From IMG/VR virus record IMGVR_UViG_2563366966_000001: a stretch of DNA of 52,942 bases; one strand, 5' to 3'. This document shows, piece after piece, positions 1 through 16,984 of this stretch. The number at the start of each line of letters is the position of its first letter. The first letter of the stretch is position 1. This stretch comes from a virus. Taxonomy: Duplodnaviria; Heunggongvirae; Uroviricota; Caudoviricetes. The notes under the pieces are model-generated. The model ran no database searches. It saw nothing but the letters and a program-made list of their open reading frames with translations, and was not told the DNA's origin. A program made the translations under genes and the position numbers.

Positions 1-1284
1 TTACAGACTTCTGGAAGGTTGCGCAGCTCTTACAACACGCGGTTGATCTTCCGCAGCGTCTTCCAGCGCACTTAAATCACGGTCTTTCACCTCTGGCATT
101 TTCAGCGCAGAGATTAAACCAATCACTGAATATGCCATGATCATAATGGCGATCGGATACCAGGATTCCGTCATGGTGCAGAAAATACCCGCCAGGATAG
201 GACCAAAACCGGAAGCGATAAGACCACCAATTTCTTTAGAAATAGCCATCCGGGTAAAGCGGTTTTTACAGCCGAACATTTCTGCCATGGTAATGTTTTC
301 CAGAGCAAATAATCCCAGCACCGCACAGTTATGAATCACAATCAGTGCAACCATAATGGTGCTCGGGGCATAGCTTTTATCTACAATGATAGAAAGCATT
401 GGCCATGCCAGCACAATCGCGGAGGTATTCATAATAATATACGGGATCCGGCGACCAATTTTATCGGATAACCAACCAAGGAACGGAATGGTCATAAAGC
501 CGAGAATCGAACTGATCATCAATGCATCTGTTGGAATTGCTTTGTTAAACAATAACGTCTGCACTAAATAGCCTGCAAGGAAAGTCTGAATTAACCCGGA
601 GTTACCCGCCTGACCAAAACGCAGCCCTGTTGCCAGCCAGAAGGATTTGCTCTGGAACATGCTACCAGCAGGTGCAGGTTTTGCTGTCGGTTGGTTACTG
701 TCGTTAACCTTCTCAAAGACCGGGCTTTCTTTCAGATTCATACGCAACCAGATAGCAAAGACCATCACGACAACACTCGCCAGGAACGGTATACGCCATC
801 CCCACGCCAGCAGTTCCTCTTTACTGAGAATGAAGAACATAAAGGCCCAGATTGCCGTTGCGCTCAAGGTTCCGCAGTTAGTTCCCATAGCCACAAATGA
901 GGAGATAATTCCGCGCTTACCTTTTGGCGCATATTCCGCCAGCATCGTACCGGCACCGGAAATTTCCGCACCTGCACCCAACCCCTGAATAATACGCAAC
1001 GTCACCAGCAAGATGGGTGCAAAAACACCAATCTGTGCATAGGTCGGTAACACACCAATTAAGGTGGTACAGATCCCCATCATGGTGATGGTAATAAAGA
1101 GCACTTTTTTACGCCCTATTCTGTCGCCCATTTTGCCGAAAATAAATGCTCCGACAATACGCGCCACATAACCTGCACCGTAGGTTCCCATTGCCAGAAT
1201 TAACGCCATTGCCGTTGATGATTCAGGAAAAAATATTTCATGAAACACTAACGCTGCGCCGAGCGAATATAACTGGAAATCCAT
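1..1284 (-). CDS. ydfJ: MFS-family metabolite transporter (YdfJ-like); N-terminus apparently replaced at the prophage junction
   Basis: 427-aa ORF with multiple hydrophobic helices and the MFS loop motif G-D-R-I-G-R-K-K after TM2; from memory of ShiA/ProP-type homologs about 30 N-terminal residues are missing, and an in-frame stop lies 2 codons upstream of the ATG. Confidence 0.85.
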   Translation of the reverse strand: MDFQLYSLGAALVFHEIFFPESSTAMALILAMGTYGAGYVARIVGAFIFGKMGDRIGRKKVLFITITMMGICTTLIGVLPTYAQIGVFAPILLVTLRIIQGLGAGAEISGAGTMLAEYAPKGKRGIISSFVAMGTNCGTLSATAIWAFMFFILSKEELLAWGWRIPFLASVVVMVFAIWLRMNLKESPVFEKVNDSNQPTAKPAPAGSMFQSKSFWLATGLRFGQAGNSGLIQTFLAGYLVQTLLFNKAIPTDALMISSILGFMTIPFLGWLSDKIGRRIPYIIMNTSAIVLAWPMLSIIVDKSYAPSTIMVALIVIHNCAVLGLFALENITMAEMFGCKNRFTRMAISKEIGGLIASGFGPILAGIFCTMTESWYPIAIMIMAYSVIGLISALKMPEVKDRDLSALEDAAEDQPRVVRAAQPSRSL

Positions 1285-1888
1285 AATTCACAGGTGTTTT
1301 TTCCCATCCTGTGGTTTCCTTGGCGTTTTCTAGGTTTTTTCAGATAGTTGCATTTTTTTAAAAAGCATCCTAAGTTCGATCTCAGTGTCTATCTGGGGCC
1401 TATTTCTGTCCCATATATGCCCCAAAAAAACTCCCCAACAGATAAGTAGTTTTTTCATGGATTTATGCGTAAAATCAAGAACGGCTGGAAATCATTCAAT
1501 ACTCACACTATCGAAAAATTTACCAGCCAATCGCAGCACGTTCTTGCATAAGGCGTGTCTGCGGTTTTTCAACTATTCAGATACATCACTCCCATCACAT
1601 TCATTCCTCCGCATCAAAGGCATATAGGCTATATCACCTTGATATTTTTCTTTTTCAGATAAAAACTGTTATCTATGTATACTTTTAAACCCAATCCGTG
1701 TAGAGTCTCTGCATAAGATAGTTTGCAGTTGCCGCTTCAGCTTGCGCCATAAACCGCCTGATTTTTGCTGCCACCTGTTAGCATTCCTGTATACCTGAAA
1801 CGACAATGTTTATCTACGAACTTTAAGAACACCCAAGATAAAAATTGTCAACTATATCATATATAACACATTACTAATTCGAGGCTAT

Positions 1889-2002
1889 ATGAACAGCATA
1901 CTGATAATCACATCTCTCCTTATCATATTCAGCATTTTTAGTCATGCCCTAATAAAATTAGGGATTGGCATATCCAATAACCCAGACAAAACCGATGTAT
2001 AA
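1889..2002 (+). CDS. Candidate small hydrophobic protein (37 aa, one predicted TM helix)
   Basis: ATG at 1889 preceded by GAGG 5 nt upstream; translation [37 protein letters not shown]; not in ORF track because under 60 aa. Confidence 0.35.
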
Positions 2003-2070
2003 GTCAACATATCCTGAATCAGACATACAATATCGCAATGAAAATCAATAATATTTTAAGGAATATCTTC

Positions 2071-2304
2071 ATGAAATCAAAAGACACCCTAAAGTGGTTC
2101 CCTGCGCAGCTTCCTGAAGTAAGAATTATCCTAGGGGATGCTGTAGTGGAAGTAGCAAAACAGGGAAGACCTATCAATACCAGAACATTGCTTGATTACA
2201 TTGAAGGAAACATAAAGAAAAAATCATGGCTGGATAACAAAGAATTATTACAAACAGCGATATCAGTTCTTAAAGACAACCAAAATTTAAATGGTAAAAT
2301 GTAA
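2071..2304 (+). CDS. ydfK: Cold-shock-associated prophage protein YdfK
   Basis: ORF track 2038..2304; internal ATG at 2071 with AAGGA upstream gives the 77-aa form matching my memory of K-12 YdfK. Confidence 0.8.
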   Translation: MKSKDTLKWFPAQLPEVRIILGDAVVEVAKQGRPINTRTLLDYIEGNIKKKSWLDNKELLQTAISVLKDNQNLNGKM

Positions 2305-2469
2305 TATAATAAACTTACTTTTTTATCATTTTTCCACTTTAACAACATTTTGCTCCACTTTTCCACGACCAAACAACTTGAAATCTGGTTAAAATAACAC
2401 GCAACACTATTCTTCTTCCTTGAGTCCGCCCGGAACTCGAAAAACAAACCGAGTTAAAGCCATTTTTCA

Positions 2470-2483
2470 CAAAATCGATTTTG
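2470..2483. promoter_or_regulatory. Perfect 14-bp palindrome CAAAATCGATTTTG upstream of pin (candidate operator or recombinase site)
   Basis: Exact dyad symmetry read from sequence, about 140 bp upstream of the pin start codon. Confidence 0.3.
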
Positions 2484-2620
2484 GGTCTCACCAAAATTAC
2501 GGGGTTGCATACGCATTCGTTTATTTTCGAACGTGTACATACAAATATGCACAAAAATAATCATAATTATTTTCTGAGATGCATTATGATATGAACACCA
2601 ATTTCGTATAGAGTCTCACT

Positions 2621-3211
2621 ATGTCTCAAATTTTTGCTTACTGTCGGATATCAACGCTGGATCAGACCACCGAAAATCAACGCCGGGAAATCGAAAGTGC
2701 AGGTTTTAAAATCAAACCTCAGCAAATAATCGAAGAACACATTAGCGGCTCAGCAGCAACCAGTGAGCGTCCTGGTTTTAACCGGTTGCTTGCTCGCCTG
2801 AAATGTGGTGATCAATTGATTGTGACAAAACTGGATCGCCTTGGTTGTAATGCAATGGATATCAGGAAAACAGTGGAACAACTGACCGAAACAGGTATCA
2901 GAGTGCATTGCTTAGCATTGGGGGGCATTGACCTGACCAGTCCAACAGGAAAAATGATGATGCAAGTAATTTCAGCAGTCGCTGAATTTGAACGAGACCT
3001 TTTACTTGAACGCACTCATTCCGGGATAGTAAGAGCCCGCGGCGCAGGGAAACGTTTTGGTCGACCACCTGTGTTAAATGAAGAACAGAAACAGGCGGTA
3101 TTCGAACGAATTAAGTCAGGTGTAAGTATAAGTGCCATTGCCCGGGAATTCAAAACCTCGCGGCAAACCATTTTAAGAGCCAAAGCAAAACTTCAGACAC
3201 CTGACATATAA
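2621..3211 (+). CDS. pin: Serine recombinase, Pin/Gin/Hin-type DNA invertase
   Basis: 196-aa ORF; N-terminal resolvase catalytic motif (YCRISTLDQ) and C-terminal HTH; matches Pin-family invertases from memory. Confidence 0.9.
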
Positions 3212-3308
3212 AAAATAATCTCGGTGTGAGATGCTTTACGTCTTCCAAGCCCCCTTCCTTGCCGTAAATGGAAAGATACATCTAATTATAGAATTTATAT
3301 GTTTTACC

Positions 3309-3884
3309 CTACGGCAGTGCTGGCCATTCAATATCCTGTGCAGTTGACGTATCAACACGGTTCAGCAATACCCGATACTTTTTCCATGCTTCCAGCAACG
3401 AGATTTCTTCCTCCGTTGCAATTTCCAGATCTGCAGCATCCTGAAGCGGCGCAATATGCTCACTGGCTACCTGCATCAGGTTGTTTTTTGTTTCTTCCGC
3501 CTCCCGGATCCGGAACAGTTTTTCTGCTTCCGTATCCTTCACCCAGGCTGTGCCGTTCCACTTCTGAAACTCCCCTTCCGGCGATAACCAGGTAACATTT
3601 TCCGGTAACGGACCGAGTTCAGAAATAAATAACGCGTCGCCGGAAGCCACGTCATAAACCGTTTTACCCCGATGATCTTCAACGAGATGCCACGATGACT
3701 CATCACTGTTGAAAACAGCCACGAAGCCAGCCGGAATATCTGGCGGTGCAATATCGGTACTGTTTGCTGGCAGACCTGTATGAGGCGGAATATATGCATC
3801 ACCTTCACCAATAAATTCATTAGTTCCGGCCAGCAGATTATAAATTTTTATGGTCCGTGGTTGTTCACTCATTCTGAATGCCAT
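3309..3884 (-). CDS. tfa: Tail fiber assembly protein Tfa
   Basis: 191-aa ORF highly similar to lambda Tfa as recalled; immediately downstream of stf. Confidence 0.9.
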
Positions 3885-6800
3885 TATGCAAGCCTCACAA
3901 TATAGTTAAATGCGATGTTTTTGACGGTGTTTTCCGCGTTACCAGCAGCGTTAACGGTGATGGTGTGTCCATGTGAACCAATCGCAACGGAGTGCGTATG
4001 AGCACCAATACCGACAGTATGTGCATGTGCGCCTGCGCTTGCAGCAGTGCCGGACAGCGAGTGGGTATGAGCACCATCTGATGATGTCTTCCCTGCATTA
4101 CGAGTCTGGCCACTACCGCTTGTTGTGCTCATAATCCCCGCGCTTAGATTTGAAATCGCGGTATAACCATTAGGGAAAATGCTCGTGTTCGTGCCACCAA
4201 ATGCACCGGAACTCTTGTGTTGGTGCGCACCGGCACTATTTGCGGTCCCGCTAATACTATGGGTATGCGCCCCGGTGTTATTCGTGGATTTGGTTCCGTA
4301 ATCAAACGACGATGTGGTTTTCGTCCCCAAATCCGTACTGGATGCGCTGGCGCTGTGGGTGTGCGATTTAATGCCGTCCTGTTCCTGAGATAATACGGCC
4401 CGACCACTGGCGGGCTTGCCCTTAATCGTCCAGCCACGCATATCAGGGATCACGCCTGACGGATAAGCAACTGCAAGTTTCGGGTATGCAGATTTGTCAA
4501 AAGTCTGCCCCTGCATCAGGGCATAACCAGACGGAACGGTATCTGATGGCCACGGGATTGGTGCACCGACTGGATAAAACTCTGCAGGAGGATGAGCCGA
4601 GGTGTAAAGCTGCGCCCACGGCGACCAGTTTGCGTCGGTCGTATCCCGTCGTGAACGAATAAATGCCGGAGCATGAGCACCGCTTGTACCACTCCAGCCG
4701 ATGAGTAACTCACCTTCGCCAACGGCTGTCATCCCTTTCAGGTGAATGATATTTCCATACGCTGTTGGATATCCGTTGTTATACACCTCGTATAACTCAA
4801 GACCTGCTGCCCCCTGCGTATTGTCTGTCAGCGCGGTTACCCGACCTTTTGAAGCCAGATTAACTGATGATACTGCTGTTCCACCTGACGGTAACGCCCC
4901 GATCTCTGATGCCGTTGGCTTATTTCTGGAGTTATAGTCCCTTCGCCAGCCAGGTGAATAATCTGTTCCGTGATTAATATAGGTAAACTGGGCGTTAGTT
5001 GTTCCACCACCAGTGGAGGTGGTCGGTGTGGTAATGCGGATCGTCATCGCTGACTTTATCCCCATTACTTCAATGACAGCTCCGGCGAGATGAATATTAC
5101 CGCAGTCAGTATCAGTAATGATTTTATTATTGCCATAAGACCAGGAACCCTTGCACATCCAGTATGGATGGTTAAATGCTCCCTGAGAATCCAGCCACTC
5201 GATAAACTGTGCAGTCGTCCAGTTTCCTGTTGTTGTGCTTACTGACCCACCGAAGGCACGGCAGGCACCAATATTTTTCGTAAAGGTATCTTTGCCAGGG
5301 ATATCCGCACCGTTCTGATCTTTCTGCAGACGTTTCTCAGCATTGTCATTGGCTGCTTTTACTGCCTTTGGTGTCGCGGCAAGCGTTTCAGACGTGCTGT
5401 TGGTCGCGCTGCTTAGCTGGATTATCCCTTTCTGTGCTGTCGTTGCATCCTGTGCGGTGTATTTCCCGTTAGCCAGGTCATACGCGGCCTTAACGGCTTT
5501 TGGTGTTGCCGCCAGTGACTCGGAAGTGCTGTTAGTCGCACTACTGAGCTGTACTATCCCCTTTTTCGTCGTGCTCGCATCCTCAAGCGCCACGGCGGAT
5601 GCAATATCCTCTGCCCGTTTTGCTGCTGTCTCGGCGCGCGTTGCTGCGGATTCTGCCGTACTTTTGCTCTGAGCTGCCGCCGTCGCACTGCCAGCAGCCT
5701 CTGTCGCCTTCGTGGATGCCGTCGTGGCGCTGCTCTTCGCTGCTGACGCTTGTCTGGTCGCCTCATCTTTTGAAGCAGACGCCGATGATGCCGATGACGC
5801 CGCCGAACTGGCTGACGATGCGGCAGCCGTTTTTGAGGATTCTGCGCTGGTTTCCGACGCTTTCGCGTTCGTTTCGGATGTCTTCGCTGCGGAAGCAGAC
5901 CTCGCTGCTGCGCTGGCCTGTTCAGTGGCTTCGCCAGCCTTCGTTGTGGCTGTTGAAGCAGACGATGCGGCGCTTTCTGCCGATTTTCCGGCGGCGGTGG
6001 CACTGGCTGAGGCCTGCCCGGCACTTGTTGACGCTGCACTGGCAGACGACGCAGCCGCTGTTTTTGAGCCTGCCGCAGCCGAGGCGCTCTGTCCCGCTGC
6101 CGTTTCAGAAGACCTGGCGTTCGTCTCTGACGTTTTTGCCGCCTTCGCGGAATTTCCTGCCGCTGTTGCCGAGGAAGCTGCGCTACTGGCGCTCGAGGAT
6201 GCGTTCGTTTCTGATGATTTTGCCGCCTCTTTTGAAGCCGACGCATCCCGGGCTGAGGTGGCAGCTTCTGACGCTTTCGTGGTCGCGGTGGATGCAGAAG
6301 TGGCTGCTGATTGTTGTGACGCTGCAGCATTCGTTTCTGACGTTTTCGCGGCACTGGCACTGGTAGCTGCCGCGCTTTTTGAGGACTCTGCAGCGGCAGC
6401 ACTTTTTGATGCTTCAGTGGCCTTTGTTGATGCCGTTCCTGCGCTGGAAGACGCTGACTGAGCCGACGAAGCGGCCTGTCCGGCTGACGTGCTGGCTGCG
6501 CGTGCTGAGCCTGCAGCATCAGTCGCATGGGTTGCCGCCTCACGGGCAGATGTGCCGGCATCGCCGGCTGACTTCTTCGCGGCTGCCGTGTTCTGTGCCA
6601 CCGCGGACGCGTTACGCGCCACCTCTTCCACCATCAGTTCAAAACGGCGCAGAGCCTCCGGACGGGCATCATCCTCCGTCATGGCACCGAGAAAATCATT
6701 CAGCGTACCGGGTCGGGAATCTTCATACACGGTGATGGTCCCGGCATGTGACGGCGGGAATCCTTCCACCAACAGAATAACGCTGTACTGACCGTACTCA

Positions 6801-6958
6801 ACGTCCATGCTGTAACGCCCGGCTTCATCCGGATTTTCTGAGGCCAGCGTGTTCACCACCACCGCGGTGCTGTTACGTTTTGCTTTCAGCTGGATTGTGC
6901 AGTTCTGTACCGGTTTTCCTGTGCCGTCTTTCAGTACACCTGAAATCTTTACTGCCAT
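3884..6958 (-). CDS. stf: Side tail fiber protein Stf (extended relative to lambda Stf)
   Basis: N-terminus [30 protein letters not shown] and C-terminus [31 protein letters not shown] match lambda Stf; ATG at 6958 chosen over the GTG that starts the track ORF. Confidence 0.9.
5330..6604. repeat. Coding repeats inside stf: Ala/Ser/Thr/Lys-rich low-complexity tract plus a roughly 130-bp tandem duplication (5366..5582)
   Basis: Protein repeat KGI(V/I)[11 protein letters not shown](S/T)[11 protein letters not shown] occurs twice 44 residues apart; DNA units at 5366..5450 and 5496..5582 are visibly similar; long antisense ORFs are generated by the low complexity. Confidence 0.6.
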
Positions 6959-6969
6959 ATTCACCCCAC

Positions 6970-7691: not shown

Positions 7692-10600
7692 TCAACGAAT
7701 ACTGATGCCGGAAGCGGCTTTTTTGGTCACAATCACCGTACAGTCGGTGATATTGCCTGCCCCCTGATTGCCTTTCTGGAAAATCTTAAACTCCAGAGTG
7801 ACGCTACCACCACCACTAGGCATATCAATAACTGCACTGTAACTACCGGGAATGGCCCCTTTAGTTTCTCTGGATGCGATTAATACGCCGTTTTTGCGAA
7901 CTTCAAAACCATAACCCGTGTATCGCGTGCCTCCTGGGTTATTTCCGCTCCCCGGATCGTCATACGCTATACCGTTAAAAATAATGGGCGGAATAATAAT
8001 CTGGCGGTCAAAGTTATGATCATCGCTGATGGTGACTGTAACCGTACCGTTTGGTGTTTCCGTGTTACCCCACGTACCGACTTTTTTCGGGAAGGCTTTT
8101 GATACAGCTTTAACGAAATCCCCTCTGACCTGGGTCGCCTCCAGCATGCCCTTAATCGTACAGTTCTGGTTAATCGTGACATTGTTGAGCGTTCCTGAGT
8201 TCGCATTCACACTACCACTGATATCCGCATTTTTAGCGGTCAGCTTTCCGTCTGATGTCAGGGAAAATACCGGAGGACTGCCACCGCTGGTAATGGTGGG
8301 GGCCGTCAGGCGTTTCAGGAACACTTCATTCATGAATATCTGATCGCCCTGACCAACAAACATCGGCTTTGTGTTGCCATTCGCAGGATTAATCATCGCA
8401 ATCCTGTCTGCTGCCAGCAGCACCTGACTCTGCATGCCGTCAGGGGTGTTCTCAATACCGGCACCGATACCCGCAATATAAAGGCGTCCGTCCTGCATCT
8501 GCTGCAGCTTCACTGCCCACATGCTGTTCAGGTTATTATTTGTATCAACCTGAACCTTCTGTATCTGCTGGATTGCCGCACTCTGGTCTTCCAGTTTCTT
8601 ATTGACGGTCTGTGTTATTTCATTGCTGACATCCGTTATGGACGTCCTGATTTCAGTCAGGTCAGGCGCAAGCTGACCGTTATCAATCTGCGTCCACAGC
8701 TCCTGAGCCAGATGGGTTTTCCCTATCTCGCCTTTGAAAAAATCCAGATAGCCTGATGCATCATCACTCGGCTGACCGACAGCCTCCACGAATGCCGATT
8801 TGCCAACGGTGTTCACACTGCGAACGTAAAAATAATAATCATGGCCCGGTTTGATATTGATACTGGCGGCTATCCAGTACAGTGCCGTACCAAGATAACG
8901 CGCGCTGGTTTCAACCTGCCTGATATCCGCAATCCGTTTTTCCGAGAACCAGAACTCAAACTGTACCGTCGGGTCATAAACCGCAAGATGCGGCGTGGCG
9001 GTTATCTGAAAATAGCCCGGCGTCAGCTCAATCCGCGACGGCGCTGCCGGTGCGGCAATCCGGAACGATACCGACGCCGGATCGCCCTGCTGCCCCCACG
9101 CATTTACTGCCCGGACTGTCAGCCTGTAGTTCCCCAGAGCCAGTTGTGTGAAGCGGTAAGTGGTTTCCGTCGTCCGGGCCGTGCTGACCAGCCGCTCACG
9201 GCCGTCATCCGCTGCCACGGTCAGGCGAAGCAGGAAGCTCACGCCCTTCACCACCTTCGGCGTGTCCCAGCGCGCCAGCACCTGGTATTCCCCGCTGTCT
9301 GCGGTGACTTCTGCGGTCAGGTGCTGCACCGCTGGCGGCGTGACACCATTTACCGTGCCGCTCTGGTCGCCGTCAAAGTGCGCCCCGTTATCCACGATGG
9401 CCTCTTTTTCCGGTACATGCTGCACGGCGGTGATGGCATACGTGCCGTCGTCGTTCTCACGGATACTCACGCAGCGGAACAGGCGCTGGCGCAACGTCGA
9501 CAGCTTCAGCCCCCATACGCTGTATTCAGCAACGCCGTCAGGAACACGGCTCACTTTCACCTTCACGCCGTCGGTGACGGACTGAACCTCCACGCTGACC
9601 GGACTCCCCTGCCCGTCAACCAGGCTTATCAGCGTGGTGCCGGAAGATGGCAGCGTGATTTCACGGTCGAGCGTCAGCGTCCGGGTCTGGCTGTTTACCG
9701 CCAGCACGCGCCCGCCGGTGCGGATACCGGCATAGTCATCATCGCAGATTTCAATGACATCGCCCGGTACATGGCGAAGCCCTTCGGCACCCACGCTGAA
9801 GTCCACGGTCTGCGTTTCCAGCAGTTCTGTTTTAATCAGCCACAGCCCGGCGCGGTGTGCCTGCCCCCGGCTGGTACAGCCAAAAGCATCCATCTTCGTG
9901 ACGTTACGACCGTAACGGGCAATGGCCTGCGTGTCCTCCACAAGCTCTGTCGCCGTCTCCCAGCCGTTATTCGGGTCAATCCAGTTCACCTCAACGGCAT
10001 TATGGCGGTCCTTCAGGGCGCTGAAGCTGTAGCGGAACGGCGCACCATCATCCGGCATCACCACATTACTGCGGTTATAGGTCCACACCTTATCCGACGG
10101 TCGGTCCTGCACGAACGTCAGCGTCTGCCCGTTCCATACCGGCATACAGCGCATCGCAGAGCAGAAATCACTGAGCACATCCCACGCCTTGCGCTGTGTG
10201 GTCAGGTACGCATTACAGGTGATGCGCGGCTCTGTGCCGCCAAAACCGTCCGGCACCGACTGATCGCAATGCTGGCCGATGACATACAGCGCCCATTTGT
10301 CCACATCCGCCGCACCAAGACGTTTCCCCATGCCGTAGCGCGGATGGGTCAGCATATCCCACAGACACCAGGCCATGTTGTTGCTGTATGCTGGCTTAAA
10401 CGTTCCGTCCCAGATACCGCTGTATTGCCGCGTCTGCGGGTTATAGTTCGACGGCACCTGCAGAATGCGCCCGCGCAGATGATAATTACGGCTCACCTGC
10501 TGGCTGCCGAACTGCTCCGAATCCACCTGCACGCCGACCAGTGCCGTGTTCGGGTAGCACTGTTTCACATCGATGATTTCGGTGTATGACGACCAGAGCG

Positions 10601-16153: not shown

Positions 16154-16984
16154 ACCGGACTCCTCCTGCGATCCCTTCTGATACTGTCATCAGCATTACG
16201 TCATCCTCCGTCATGTCCGCCACATCCGGGGAAGCGGGGATAACTTCATTCCCTTCCGGGCCAAAGCGGACGCCTCCGGCAAGCCCTGCCGCTTTCTGCA
16301 TCAGCACATCATCTTCAGGCTCTTCGTCAGCCTCACGCCGGTTCAGCAGACTGAAATCCAGCGGATGCATATCCGGATCGCTGAAAAACAGGCTGAGCAC
16401 GGTGTACGTCAGCCCGGAAAAGTGCATATCCAGCAGAACATCATGAAAATAATGGGTACTGTAAAAGCGGTGCCAGTCGGCATACTCCGTGGATGACATC
16501 CCGGCAAGCATGGCACGCCAGTCGGGTCGCCCCATCTCTCGCGCCAGTTTCAGGGCAAAACTCAGCTCACCATCGAACACTTTCCCGCAGAAACAGGCTC
16601 TGCAGGCCCGGCGTCCTCTGTCTGTTCAGGAGCATCATTCACCACAAACTCATACATACCGGACAGCCGGTACACCACGTTTTCAGCATGAGAAATTGCC
16701 TCCGTGGGCCAGGTGGTAAGCACTTCCTGCTCAATCTGTTTAACGGCTTCATTCATGGAAGGCAGCTTTGTCTTCTTCGGATGGTTATGCCACAGGGACA
16801 TCGCCACCAGAAACGCGCCGGTTCTGATGGCGTCTTCCACAGTAAACTTCCGGTTGCTGTCTGACTCCGCCTGTTCTGCCTGCCGTTTCATCAGGGCGAG
16901 ATGCTCAATACGCTGCAGGGCTGACAGTTCAGAAAGCGTGACGGTCACACCGTTATGTTCAAATGATTCGGTTTTCAGGAACAT
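16146..16984 (-). CDS. T: Tail assembly chaperone G-T fusion made by programmed -1 ribosomal frameshift
   Basis: T frame (16146..16580) overlaps the end of G; slippery heptamer GGGAAAG at 16580..16586 on the minus strand, as in lambda. Confidence 0.8.
16562..16984 (-). CDS. G: Tail assembly chaperone G
   Basis: 140-aa ORF matching lambda gpG. Confidence 0.9.
   Translation of the reverse strand: MFLKTESFEHNGVTVTLSELSALQRIEHLALMKRQAEQAESDSNRKFTVEDAIRTGAFLVAMSLWHNHPKKTKLPSMNEAVKQIEQEVLTTWPTEAISHAENVVYRLSGMYEFVVNDAPEQTEDAGPAEPVSAGKCSMVS
16580..16586 (-). other. Programmed -1 frameshift slippery site GGGAAAG (G to G-T)
   Basis: Plus-strand CTTTCCC at 16580..16586 at the G/T overlap. Confidence 0.8.

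Follow-up and report, generated by a model that had tools for sequence, protein, structure and literature searches.

The small open reading frame (ORF) at the edge of this prophage is the known gene ynfT, a member of the YnaM/YnfT family that had already been named and catalogued. On the evidence laid out below we consider it very likely that ynfT is a translated and selected gene of an att-proximal cassette, that its product is a predicted inner-membrane protein co-expressed with the neighbouring gene ydfK, and that it acts as a protein and is neither a toxin nor a leader ORF. The window, meaning the whole stretch of DNA that was analysed, is a viral record of 52,942 nucleotides (IMGVR_UViG_2563366966_000001), and all positions without another label refer to it. 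The ORF and its immediate surroundings comprise the following features:

1881 to 1884, plus strand: Shine-Dalgarno core GAGG, 4 nt ahead of the ATG, kept in four of five lineages.
1889 to 2002, plus strand: ynfT coding sequence (RefSeq, PF23676, NF041477, dN/dS 0.078, SPA-tag immunoblot in PMC6001520).
1898 to 1954, plus strand: predicted transmembrane helix, codons 4-22 (Hessa-scale sum; AlphaFold2 helix 2-30).
1955 to 1999, plus strand: codons 23-37, a Lys past the helix and then a polar tail conserved in the E. coli and Salmonella variants.
2003 to 2070, plus strand: spacer of 68 nt, terminator-free, with the ydfK Shine-Dalgarno sequence AAGGAA (2058-2063).
2071 to 2304, plus strand: ydfK, encoding the cold shock protein YdfK of 77 aa (RefSeq), the second gene of the cassette.

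The first-pass annotation, made from the sequence alone, had described a hydrophobic ORF of 37 aa upstream of ydfK, preceded by a strong ribosome-binding site at optimal spacing. The frame is just as it stated, opening with the ATG at 1889 on the plus strand, running for 37 codons to the TAA at 2000-2002 and giving an identical translation, and ydfK begins after 68 nt. The GAGG is likewise there, at 1881-1884, but the words strong and optimal do not stand: the core is four nucleotides long and spaced by 4 nt, and its duplex with the 3' end of 16S rRNA has a dG of -5.9 kcal/mol, which puts it in the top 8.7% among all ATGs of the window. Such quality is matched by 29 of the window's 336 short-ORF starts, and the ribosome-binding site is decent rather than exceptional.

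The description of the ORF as unannotated was mistaken, since RefSeq carries ynfT, with the product WP_120795384.1, at the same coordinates, and UniProt holds the identical peptide as the Swiss-Prot entry YNAM_ECOLI. In a K-12-derived record, a coding sequence lies at exactly corresponding coordinates, with WP_120795384.1, 'YnaM/YnfT family protein', as its product. A 721-nt query consisting of the ORF and ydfK matches 2,809 of 5,426 complete E. coli genomes, where the feature is ynfT (or ynaM), a YnaM/YnfT family protein; a genome that is 100% identical to the window across the 721-nt match has the same ynfT annotation. At this ORF, ynfT is called by RefSeq in about 2,790 of the 5,426 genomes, and the exact peptide sequence occurs on about 1000 contigs. 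Only some older phage GenBank records (mEp460, 2H10 and Tritos) leave the gene uncalled. The peptide scores 96.2 bits with Pfam PF23676 (cut-off 27), aligned over residues 1-37 of 37, and 63.9 bits with NCBIfam NF041477 (cut-off 35). Its HMM scores, its identity to the reference and its att-proximal position before ydfK/ynaE all place YnfT within the YnaM/YnfT family.

The names require some care. VanOrsdel et al. 2018 (PMC6001520) printed the same peptide sequence for two K-12 loci, ynaE/ttcC (ynaM) and ydfJ/ydfK, and named the Qin copy ynfQ. RefSeq now uses ynfQ for another gene, beside cspI, and the gene between ydfJ and ydfK is today's ynfT. YnaM of the Rac prophage of K-12 and YnfT of the Qin prophage have the same 37-aa sequence as the product of the ORF in the window and occupy the same place, upstream of ynaE or ydfK and of pin.

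YnfT is a genuine, translated protein of 37 aa. Ribosome profiling had been proposed as a check on the ORF, and the published data are positive: both ynaM and the ydfJ/ydfK small ORF were recovered in a screen based on tetracycline-arrested ribosome profiling, and the chromosomally SPA-tagged proteins of both loci were detected by immunoblot in exponential and stationary phase (PMC6001520). According to Weaver et al. (bioRxiv 10.1101/511675), the abundance of YnaM-SPA is above that of most newly detected small proteins; in the same study YnaM is without a start-codon peak in retapamulin or Onc112 ribosome profiling. Given that the Rac and Qin copies of one K-12-like genome are exactly identical over 75 nt around the start codon, we infer that the missing start-site peak is due to reads that map to more than one place.

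Judged by its pattern of substitutions, ynfT is a protein-coding gene under strong purifying selection. The Salmonella phage 118970_sal3 carries a coding sequence of 114 nt followed by one of 234 nt, in the layout of ynfT-ydfK, and the small peptide it encodes is equal in length and 78% identical to YnfT. Fifteen of the 23 nucleotide differences between the two small genes fall at third codon positions, and the dN/dS of this pair is 0.078 for ynfT and 0.079 for ydfK. Among 11 distinct ynfT alleles, variable sites are distributed 5/4/17 over the first, second and third codon positions. The other two frames of the region contain many stops. A synonymous-site pattern inconsistent with coding had been put forward as the result that would speak against the ORF, and what we find speaks strongly for coding instead.

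Divergent relatives were sought without bias, by taking YdfK relatives as anchors and inspecting the DNA upstream of each. Two lineages, in which YdfK is 72% and 67% identical, encode YnfT versions of 39 aa, one of them with a GTG start; both had been missed by gene callers. A fifth lineage, whose YdfK is identical at 60%, encodes upstream of it a 39-aa relative, MNFPGWIAIVLMIAFAGAGIVALVKIASQVSNNNDEKEP, that is 35% identical to YnfT. This relative shares the architecture of YnfT and its SNN-D tail, and its pairwise BLASTP alignment with YnfT (E = 3e-4) covers the C-terminal half. The divergent 39-aa YnfT-like ORFs, each upstream of a YdfK relative of 60-72% identity, are located as follows:

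Locus L105, 2305 to 2424.
Locus L106, 688 to 807.
Locus L107, 691 to 810.
Locus L109, 1202 to 1321.

The ORFs in L107/L108 and in L109 are uncalled by gene callers. All five lineages preserve the start position and a length of 37-39 aa, and four retain a clear Shine-Dalgarno sequence. In the four closer lineages pS is 0.6-1.0, with synonymous sites near saturation, and pN is 0.09-0.18.

The family is very narrow: when 1.84 billion representative proteins were searched exhaustively with HMMER, only 4 clusters came up, all at least 81% identical, which limits the comparative power. With the E. coli peptide as query, that search returned none of the divergent 39-aa lineages at E <= 0.001, and the family is therefore somewhat broader than current models show. 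A scan of viral contigs with the YdfK alignment gave 80 loci, all with an identical YdfK, and so provides population depth without divergence. In a tblastn search of the YnfT peptide against phages and plasmids, only residues 23-37 were aligned, the helix being masked by the low-complexity filter.

The surroundings of ynfT place it in a recurrent phage context. The left end of the window is the edge of a Qin-type prophage of E. coli, with these features:

1 to 1284, minus strand: truncated ydfJ', at the left end of the window.
1273 to 1285, no strand: approximate position of attR, the junction of phage and host, where the truncated ydfJ' stops; homology to phage mEp460 starts at 1273 and ydfJ' ends at 1284.
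1527 to 4087, plus strand: block common to Qin-type and Rac-type prophages (ynfT/ynaM, ydfK/ynaE, pin, tfa), 99% identity by blastn against the Rac loci L009 and L012.
1836 to 1888, plus strand: 53-nt upstream segment conserved with the Salmonella cassette (homology to 118970_sal3 from 1836), with a -10-like TATAAC at 1862-1867 that reads CATAAT in Salmonella.
2621 to 3211: pin invertase gene, in the left end of the window.
3309 to 3884, minus strand: tfaQ, tail-fibre assembly gene.
3884 to 6964, minus strand: full-length tail-fibre gene of 1,026 aa, with a long Ala/Ser-rich region of many imperfect repeats.

The ORF had been said to sit right at the prophage edge, and the junction at about 1273-1285, roughly 600 nt upstream, agrees with this. 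The homology to mEp460 starts 35 nt past the end of the integrase gene of that phage, and the order in the free phage is xis-int-attP-ynfT-ydfK-pin-tfa-stf. The position of ynfT at the prophage edge thus follows from the fact that the cassette adjoins attP in mEp460/Qin/Rac-type phages. The Qin and Rac copies of one K-12-like genome are 98.9% identical across 2561 nt. The Salmonella phage shares only 1836-2308, that is, the 53 nt upstream and the two genes, and is without pin; in phage 2H10 and in a prfC-integrated prophage a dinI-like gene stands in front of the cassette. Given these several phage contexts, the pair ynfT-ydfK behaves like a portable cassette, placed where a 'moron' typically is. 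ynfT is the first cistron of this cassette, which lies between the integrase/att region and the pin/tail-fibre genes in mEp460/Qin/Rac-type and related Salmonella phages.

The two genes keep close company. The small ORF lies within 150 nt of ydfK in 87 of 87 loci with enough flank, many of which are near-identical copies, and the divergence of YnfT parallels that of YdfK across lineages. The length of the spacer between the genes varies among lineages from 27 to 76 nt. YdfK-family genes are also found without a small ORF, in a lineage beside a GH94 gene and in Limnobaculum, which indicates that YdfK has no strict need for YnfT and that the ynfT-ydfK pairing is frequent and old, not obligatory. 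The first of these, a second YdfK lineage (MKSEDTLDWYP...), lies beside a 2,860-aa GH94 glycosyl-hydrolase-like gene in L099-L102 and L110-L114, with the YdfK-like gene at 2501 or 1501, and often has a divergent ynfU-like zinc-ribbon small gene upstream in place of ynfT. The Limnobaculum copy has a BON-domain gene and a lysis cassette of a phage in its neighbourhood and likewise has a divergent ynfU-like gene upstream; a further entry of this set (second YdfK lineage/Limnobaculum) is L103, 2218-2379.

Several other observations concern the cassette and its neighbours. Two loci, L011 of E. coli (2774-3147) and L013 of Shigella flexneri (2776-3183), contain a second, decayed cassette in which both genes are frameshifted, leaving pseudogene remnants. 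A 21-nt direct repeat (81% identical) at 1689-1709 and 2597-2617, ACCCAATCCGTGTAGAGTCTC and ACCAATTTCGTATAGAGTCTC, flanks ynfT-ydfK, and its second copy abuts the start codon of pinQ; it could be a trace of cassette insertion, or chance. The sequence TTCCTGTATACC at 1784-1795 on the plus strand looks like a crossover half-site of the Gin/Pin invertases, which we take to be TTCCTGTAAACC. An invertible segment was rejected here, for there is no inverted partner nearby and the sole other near-match in the window is at 16970-16981. The Rfam family IS009 (RF02111) matches 3343-3541 on the minus strand with 220.9 bits, wholly within tfaQ, and does likewise in mEp460, Shigella and further loci; what this 'RNA family' captures appears to be conserved coding sequence. 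The Qin prophage of K-12 retains a mere fragment of the tail-fibre gene, which the window has at full length, so that the prophage of the window is more complete at this end. In assemblies assigned to Caldithrix, Alistipes, Draconibacterium and Chryseobacterium (L002, L004, L007 and L010), ydfK is 99-100% identical to that of E. coli and is almost certainly the result of E. coli contamination or mis-binning. Finally, a 'non-mobilizable plasmid' record of 42,027 bp (NZ_CP141086.1) has an annotated YnaM/YnfT gene at 9645-9689, and its size suggests a circularised lambdoid phage genome, not a plasmid.

How the cassette is transcribed can be approached from several sides. A scan of the ynfT-ydfK spacer reveals no terminator-like site, and in one RNA-seq table ynfT (5.7-fold) and ydfK (5.3-fold) are upregulated together with cspB/G/I, ymcE/F, deaD and rhlE (PMC13058169). 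From the layout and this one co-regulation table we infer that ynfT and ydfK are co-transcribed. At the protein level, YdfK and YnaE were seen after refrigeration of colonies (PMC5594050). Genomic SELEX places low-resolution RNA polymerase peaks upstream of ydfK and ynaE (PMC5493296), which by our own coordinate arithmetic convert to about 1610-1720 of the window, and a consensus scan, in which the number of sites is not above that of shuffled sequences, gives one weak candidate:

1654 to 1683, plus strand: candidate sigma-70 promoter-like site, TTCAGA-18-TATACT.

The conserved -10-like TATAAC/CATAAT at 1862-1867 is an alternative candidate promoter element. The genomic SELEX hexamers given for ydfK (TTCCCA-16-GATAAT) map to 882-909 inside ydfJ' and were set aside as uninformative, and none of ydfK, ynaE and pinQ appears in the SMRT-Cappable-seq supplements. 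We propose that ynfT would be expressed from the lysogen in the manner of a phage 'moron', together with the cold-inducible ydfK. The Qin prophage that carries ynfT holds other tiny ORFs beside cold-shock genes, YnfR and YnfQ/YmcF next to cspI, in the order cspI-ynfQ-ynfR-ynfN. Their sequences are unrelated to YnfT, and YnfR-SPA is itself cold-induced, whereas for YnfT there is the co-upregulation with cold-shock genes in one RNA-seq table.

The peptide had also been called a single-transmembrane one, and the predictions concur. The segment of residues 4-22 has a summed Hessa dGapp of -1.83 kcal/mol, and a 19-mer sum of -1 kcal/mol or lower is reached by 4 of the window's 255 ATG-initiated ORFs of 30-60 aa. 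AlphaFold2 models YnfT as one helix over residues 2-30 (pLDDT 88.6). Among the E. coli and Salmonella variants, K23, I26, G27, S29, N30, N31, P32, K34 and D36 are invariant or nearly so; SNNPDKTD forms the conserved tail, of which the SNN-D motif persists in the distant 39-aa relative. We would expect residues 4-22 of YnfT to span the inner membrane as its one helix, leaving Lys23 and the acidic SNNPDKTD tail on one side, and this lysine together with the conserved tail would be the only exposed surface of the protein.

What might such a peptide do? The first-pass annotation had likened it to type I toxins. A toxin of this kind harms the inner membrane when it is made, and a small RNA, antisense or encoded close by, normally keeps it silent. 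YnfT is small, prophage-borne and predicted to span the membrane once, it faintly resembles the toxin model PepG1 (E 0.055), and a single promoter-like hexamer pair is found on the minus strand at 2080-2053. The PepG1 match, however, reaches 13.1 bits against a cut-off of 70, and neither the other toxin models nor PADLOC give any match. The promoter-like sites number 7 against 5.9 +/- 2.6 in shuffles, and an antisense terminator is absent. At the ynfT locus the Rfam scan finds no sRNA family and RefSeq annotates no ncRNA. A CssrB sRNA candidate at 1532-1669 was discarded: its 25 bits fall short of the gathering score of 76, and it does not recur in the related loci that were searched, two Shigella loci among them. 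Nor is there an excess of structure: compared with shuffles, folding gives z scores of +0.27 for the mRNA, +0.11 for the minus strand and -0.40 for Salmonella, there is no covariation, and the ynfT Shine-Dalgarno sequence is not sequestered. Type I toxins are normally silenced. The tagged protein, in contrast, is present at a comparatively high level in growing cells from its native locus (bioRxiv 10.1101/511675; PMC6001520). YnfT does resemble Hok, Ldr, Ibs, TisB, ShoB and PepG1 in being shorter than 60 aa, with one hydrophobic helix, and in a prophage or island location that is frequent among them; it differs from all of them in that no antisense RNA or sRNA, silenced mRNA or family match was detected and in that it accumulates in growing cells. 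What is left of the likeness is a small, hydrophobic peptide, and we regard a toxin as highly improbable.

Two further readings were weighed. If ynfT were a cis-acting leader ORF, its translation would only control ydfK, in the cold for instance, and its product would be functionless. Such a role is suggested by its place ahead of a cold-shock gene, from which 68 nt and no terminator separate it, by the co-regulation of the two genes in one data set (PMC13058169), and by the minimum-free-energy fold of the E. coli sequence, in which a UCCUUA inside ynfT pairs with the Shine-Dalgarno region of ydfK. Yet this long-range pairing is lost in the consensus fold, where the RNAalifold covariation term is -0.1, and a conserved RNA structure that couples ynfT to ydfK was dismissed, being unsupported by the consensus fold and by shuffles. 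The spacing, as described above, is variable, and ydfK keeps a Shine-Dalgarno sequence of its own (dG -6.1), both of which argue against coupling, and homologues of YdfK function without any such ORF. Moreover, the amino acids are constrained (dN/dS about 0.08, with the transmembrane core and tail motif conserved) and tagged YnfT/YnaM accumulates stably. Neither the conserved structure or fixed spacing of a leader peptide or uORF nor the dispensable peptide sequence that such ORFs have, arrest peptides apart, is found here; a purely cis-acting leader ORF is unlikely, and we give this reading only a slim chance. Alternatively, YnfT may be a membrane factor, expressed in the lysogen and independent of YdfK, that guards the host against other phages by superinfection exclusion or abortive infection. 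Its position beside attP and the genes for tail fibres, moron-like and shared by several unrelated phage backbones, its expression in lysogens without induction, and the predicted membrane helix would all fit. On the other side, YnfT matches none of the PADLOC defence models, its PHROG family is one of unknown function, and ynfT is strictly linked to ydfK and co-diverges with it, which suggests a joint role of YnfT and YdfK. Nothing specific supports phage exclusion, and we think the odds are heavily against it.

A small membrane regulatory protein, the other possibility that had been raised at the outset, appears to be the best remaining reading of YnfT, and the single transmembrane helix that is predicted to insert, as in the small regulatory proteins of the inner membrane, accords with it. 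Acting as a protein, YnfT would then most probably bind a larger membrane protein or cooperate with YdfK. AcrZ, MgrB and MgtS are small single-pass inner-membrane regulators of E. coli. Like YnfT, they have 30-50 aa, one transmembrane helix (a predicted one in YnfT) and a short polar tail, they can be detected with a chromosomal SPA tag, and their genes, like ynfT, are in an operon with, or adjoin, a gene that answers the same stimulus. The likeness is one of form only: YnfT has no sequence relationship to them, is phage-borne and has a very narrow distribution.

The partner gene provides a lead of its own. The AlphaFold2 model of YdfK consists of three helices (pLDDT 77.7), and its closest match in the PDB, far ahead of the rest, is YmgB/AriR of E. 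coli (2OXL), with a TM-score normalised to the target of 0.81 and an rmsd of 2.1 A; Foldseek assigns this match a probability of 1.00 and an E-value of only 0.07. The YcgZ model, too, is hit weakly by YdfK (E 0.012; 15.9 bits, cut-off 80). It is possible that YdfK is distantly related to YmgB/AriR and YcgZ, which we offer as a lead and not as a result. YmgB and YcgZ are small 'connector' regulators of low temperature that feed into envelope signalling. It is conceivable, if rather unlikely, that YnfT and YdfK form a phage-carried two-part module of the cold response, in which YnfT would sense the cold membrane, or be stabilised by it, and would recruit or control YdfK.

As a discovery, the ORF is of small value, for the discovery of the gene, its naming and the demonstration of its translation date from 2018, and RefSeq, UniProt, Pfam and NCBIfam all contain it. 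What is added here is quantitative evidence of selection, a definition of the ynfT-ydfK cassette and of the phage contexts it occupies, three new relatives that have diverged, a remote one of 39 aa among them, and the structural hint on YdfK. These additions amount to a concrete, testable lead on the role of the prophage cold-shock cassette. If the idea of a cold-response module were true, it would mean that the prophage rewires the envelope or biofilm behaviour of its host at low temperature.
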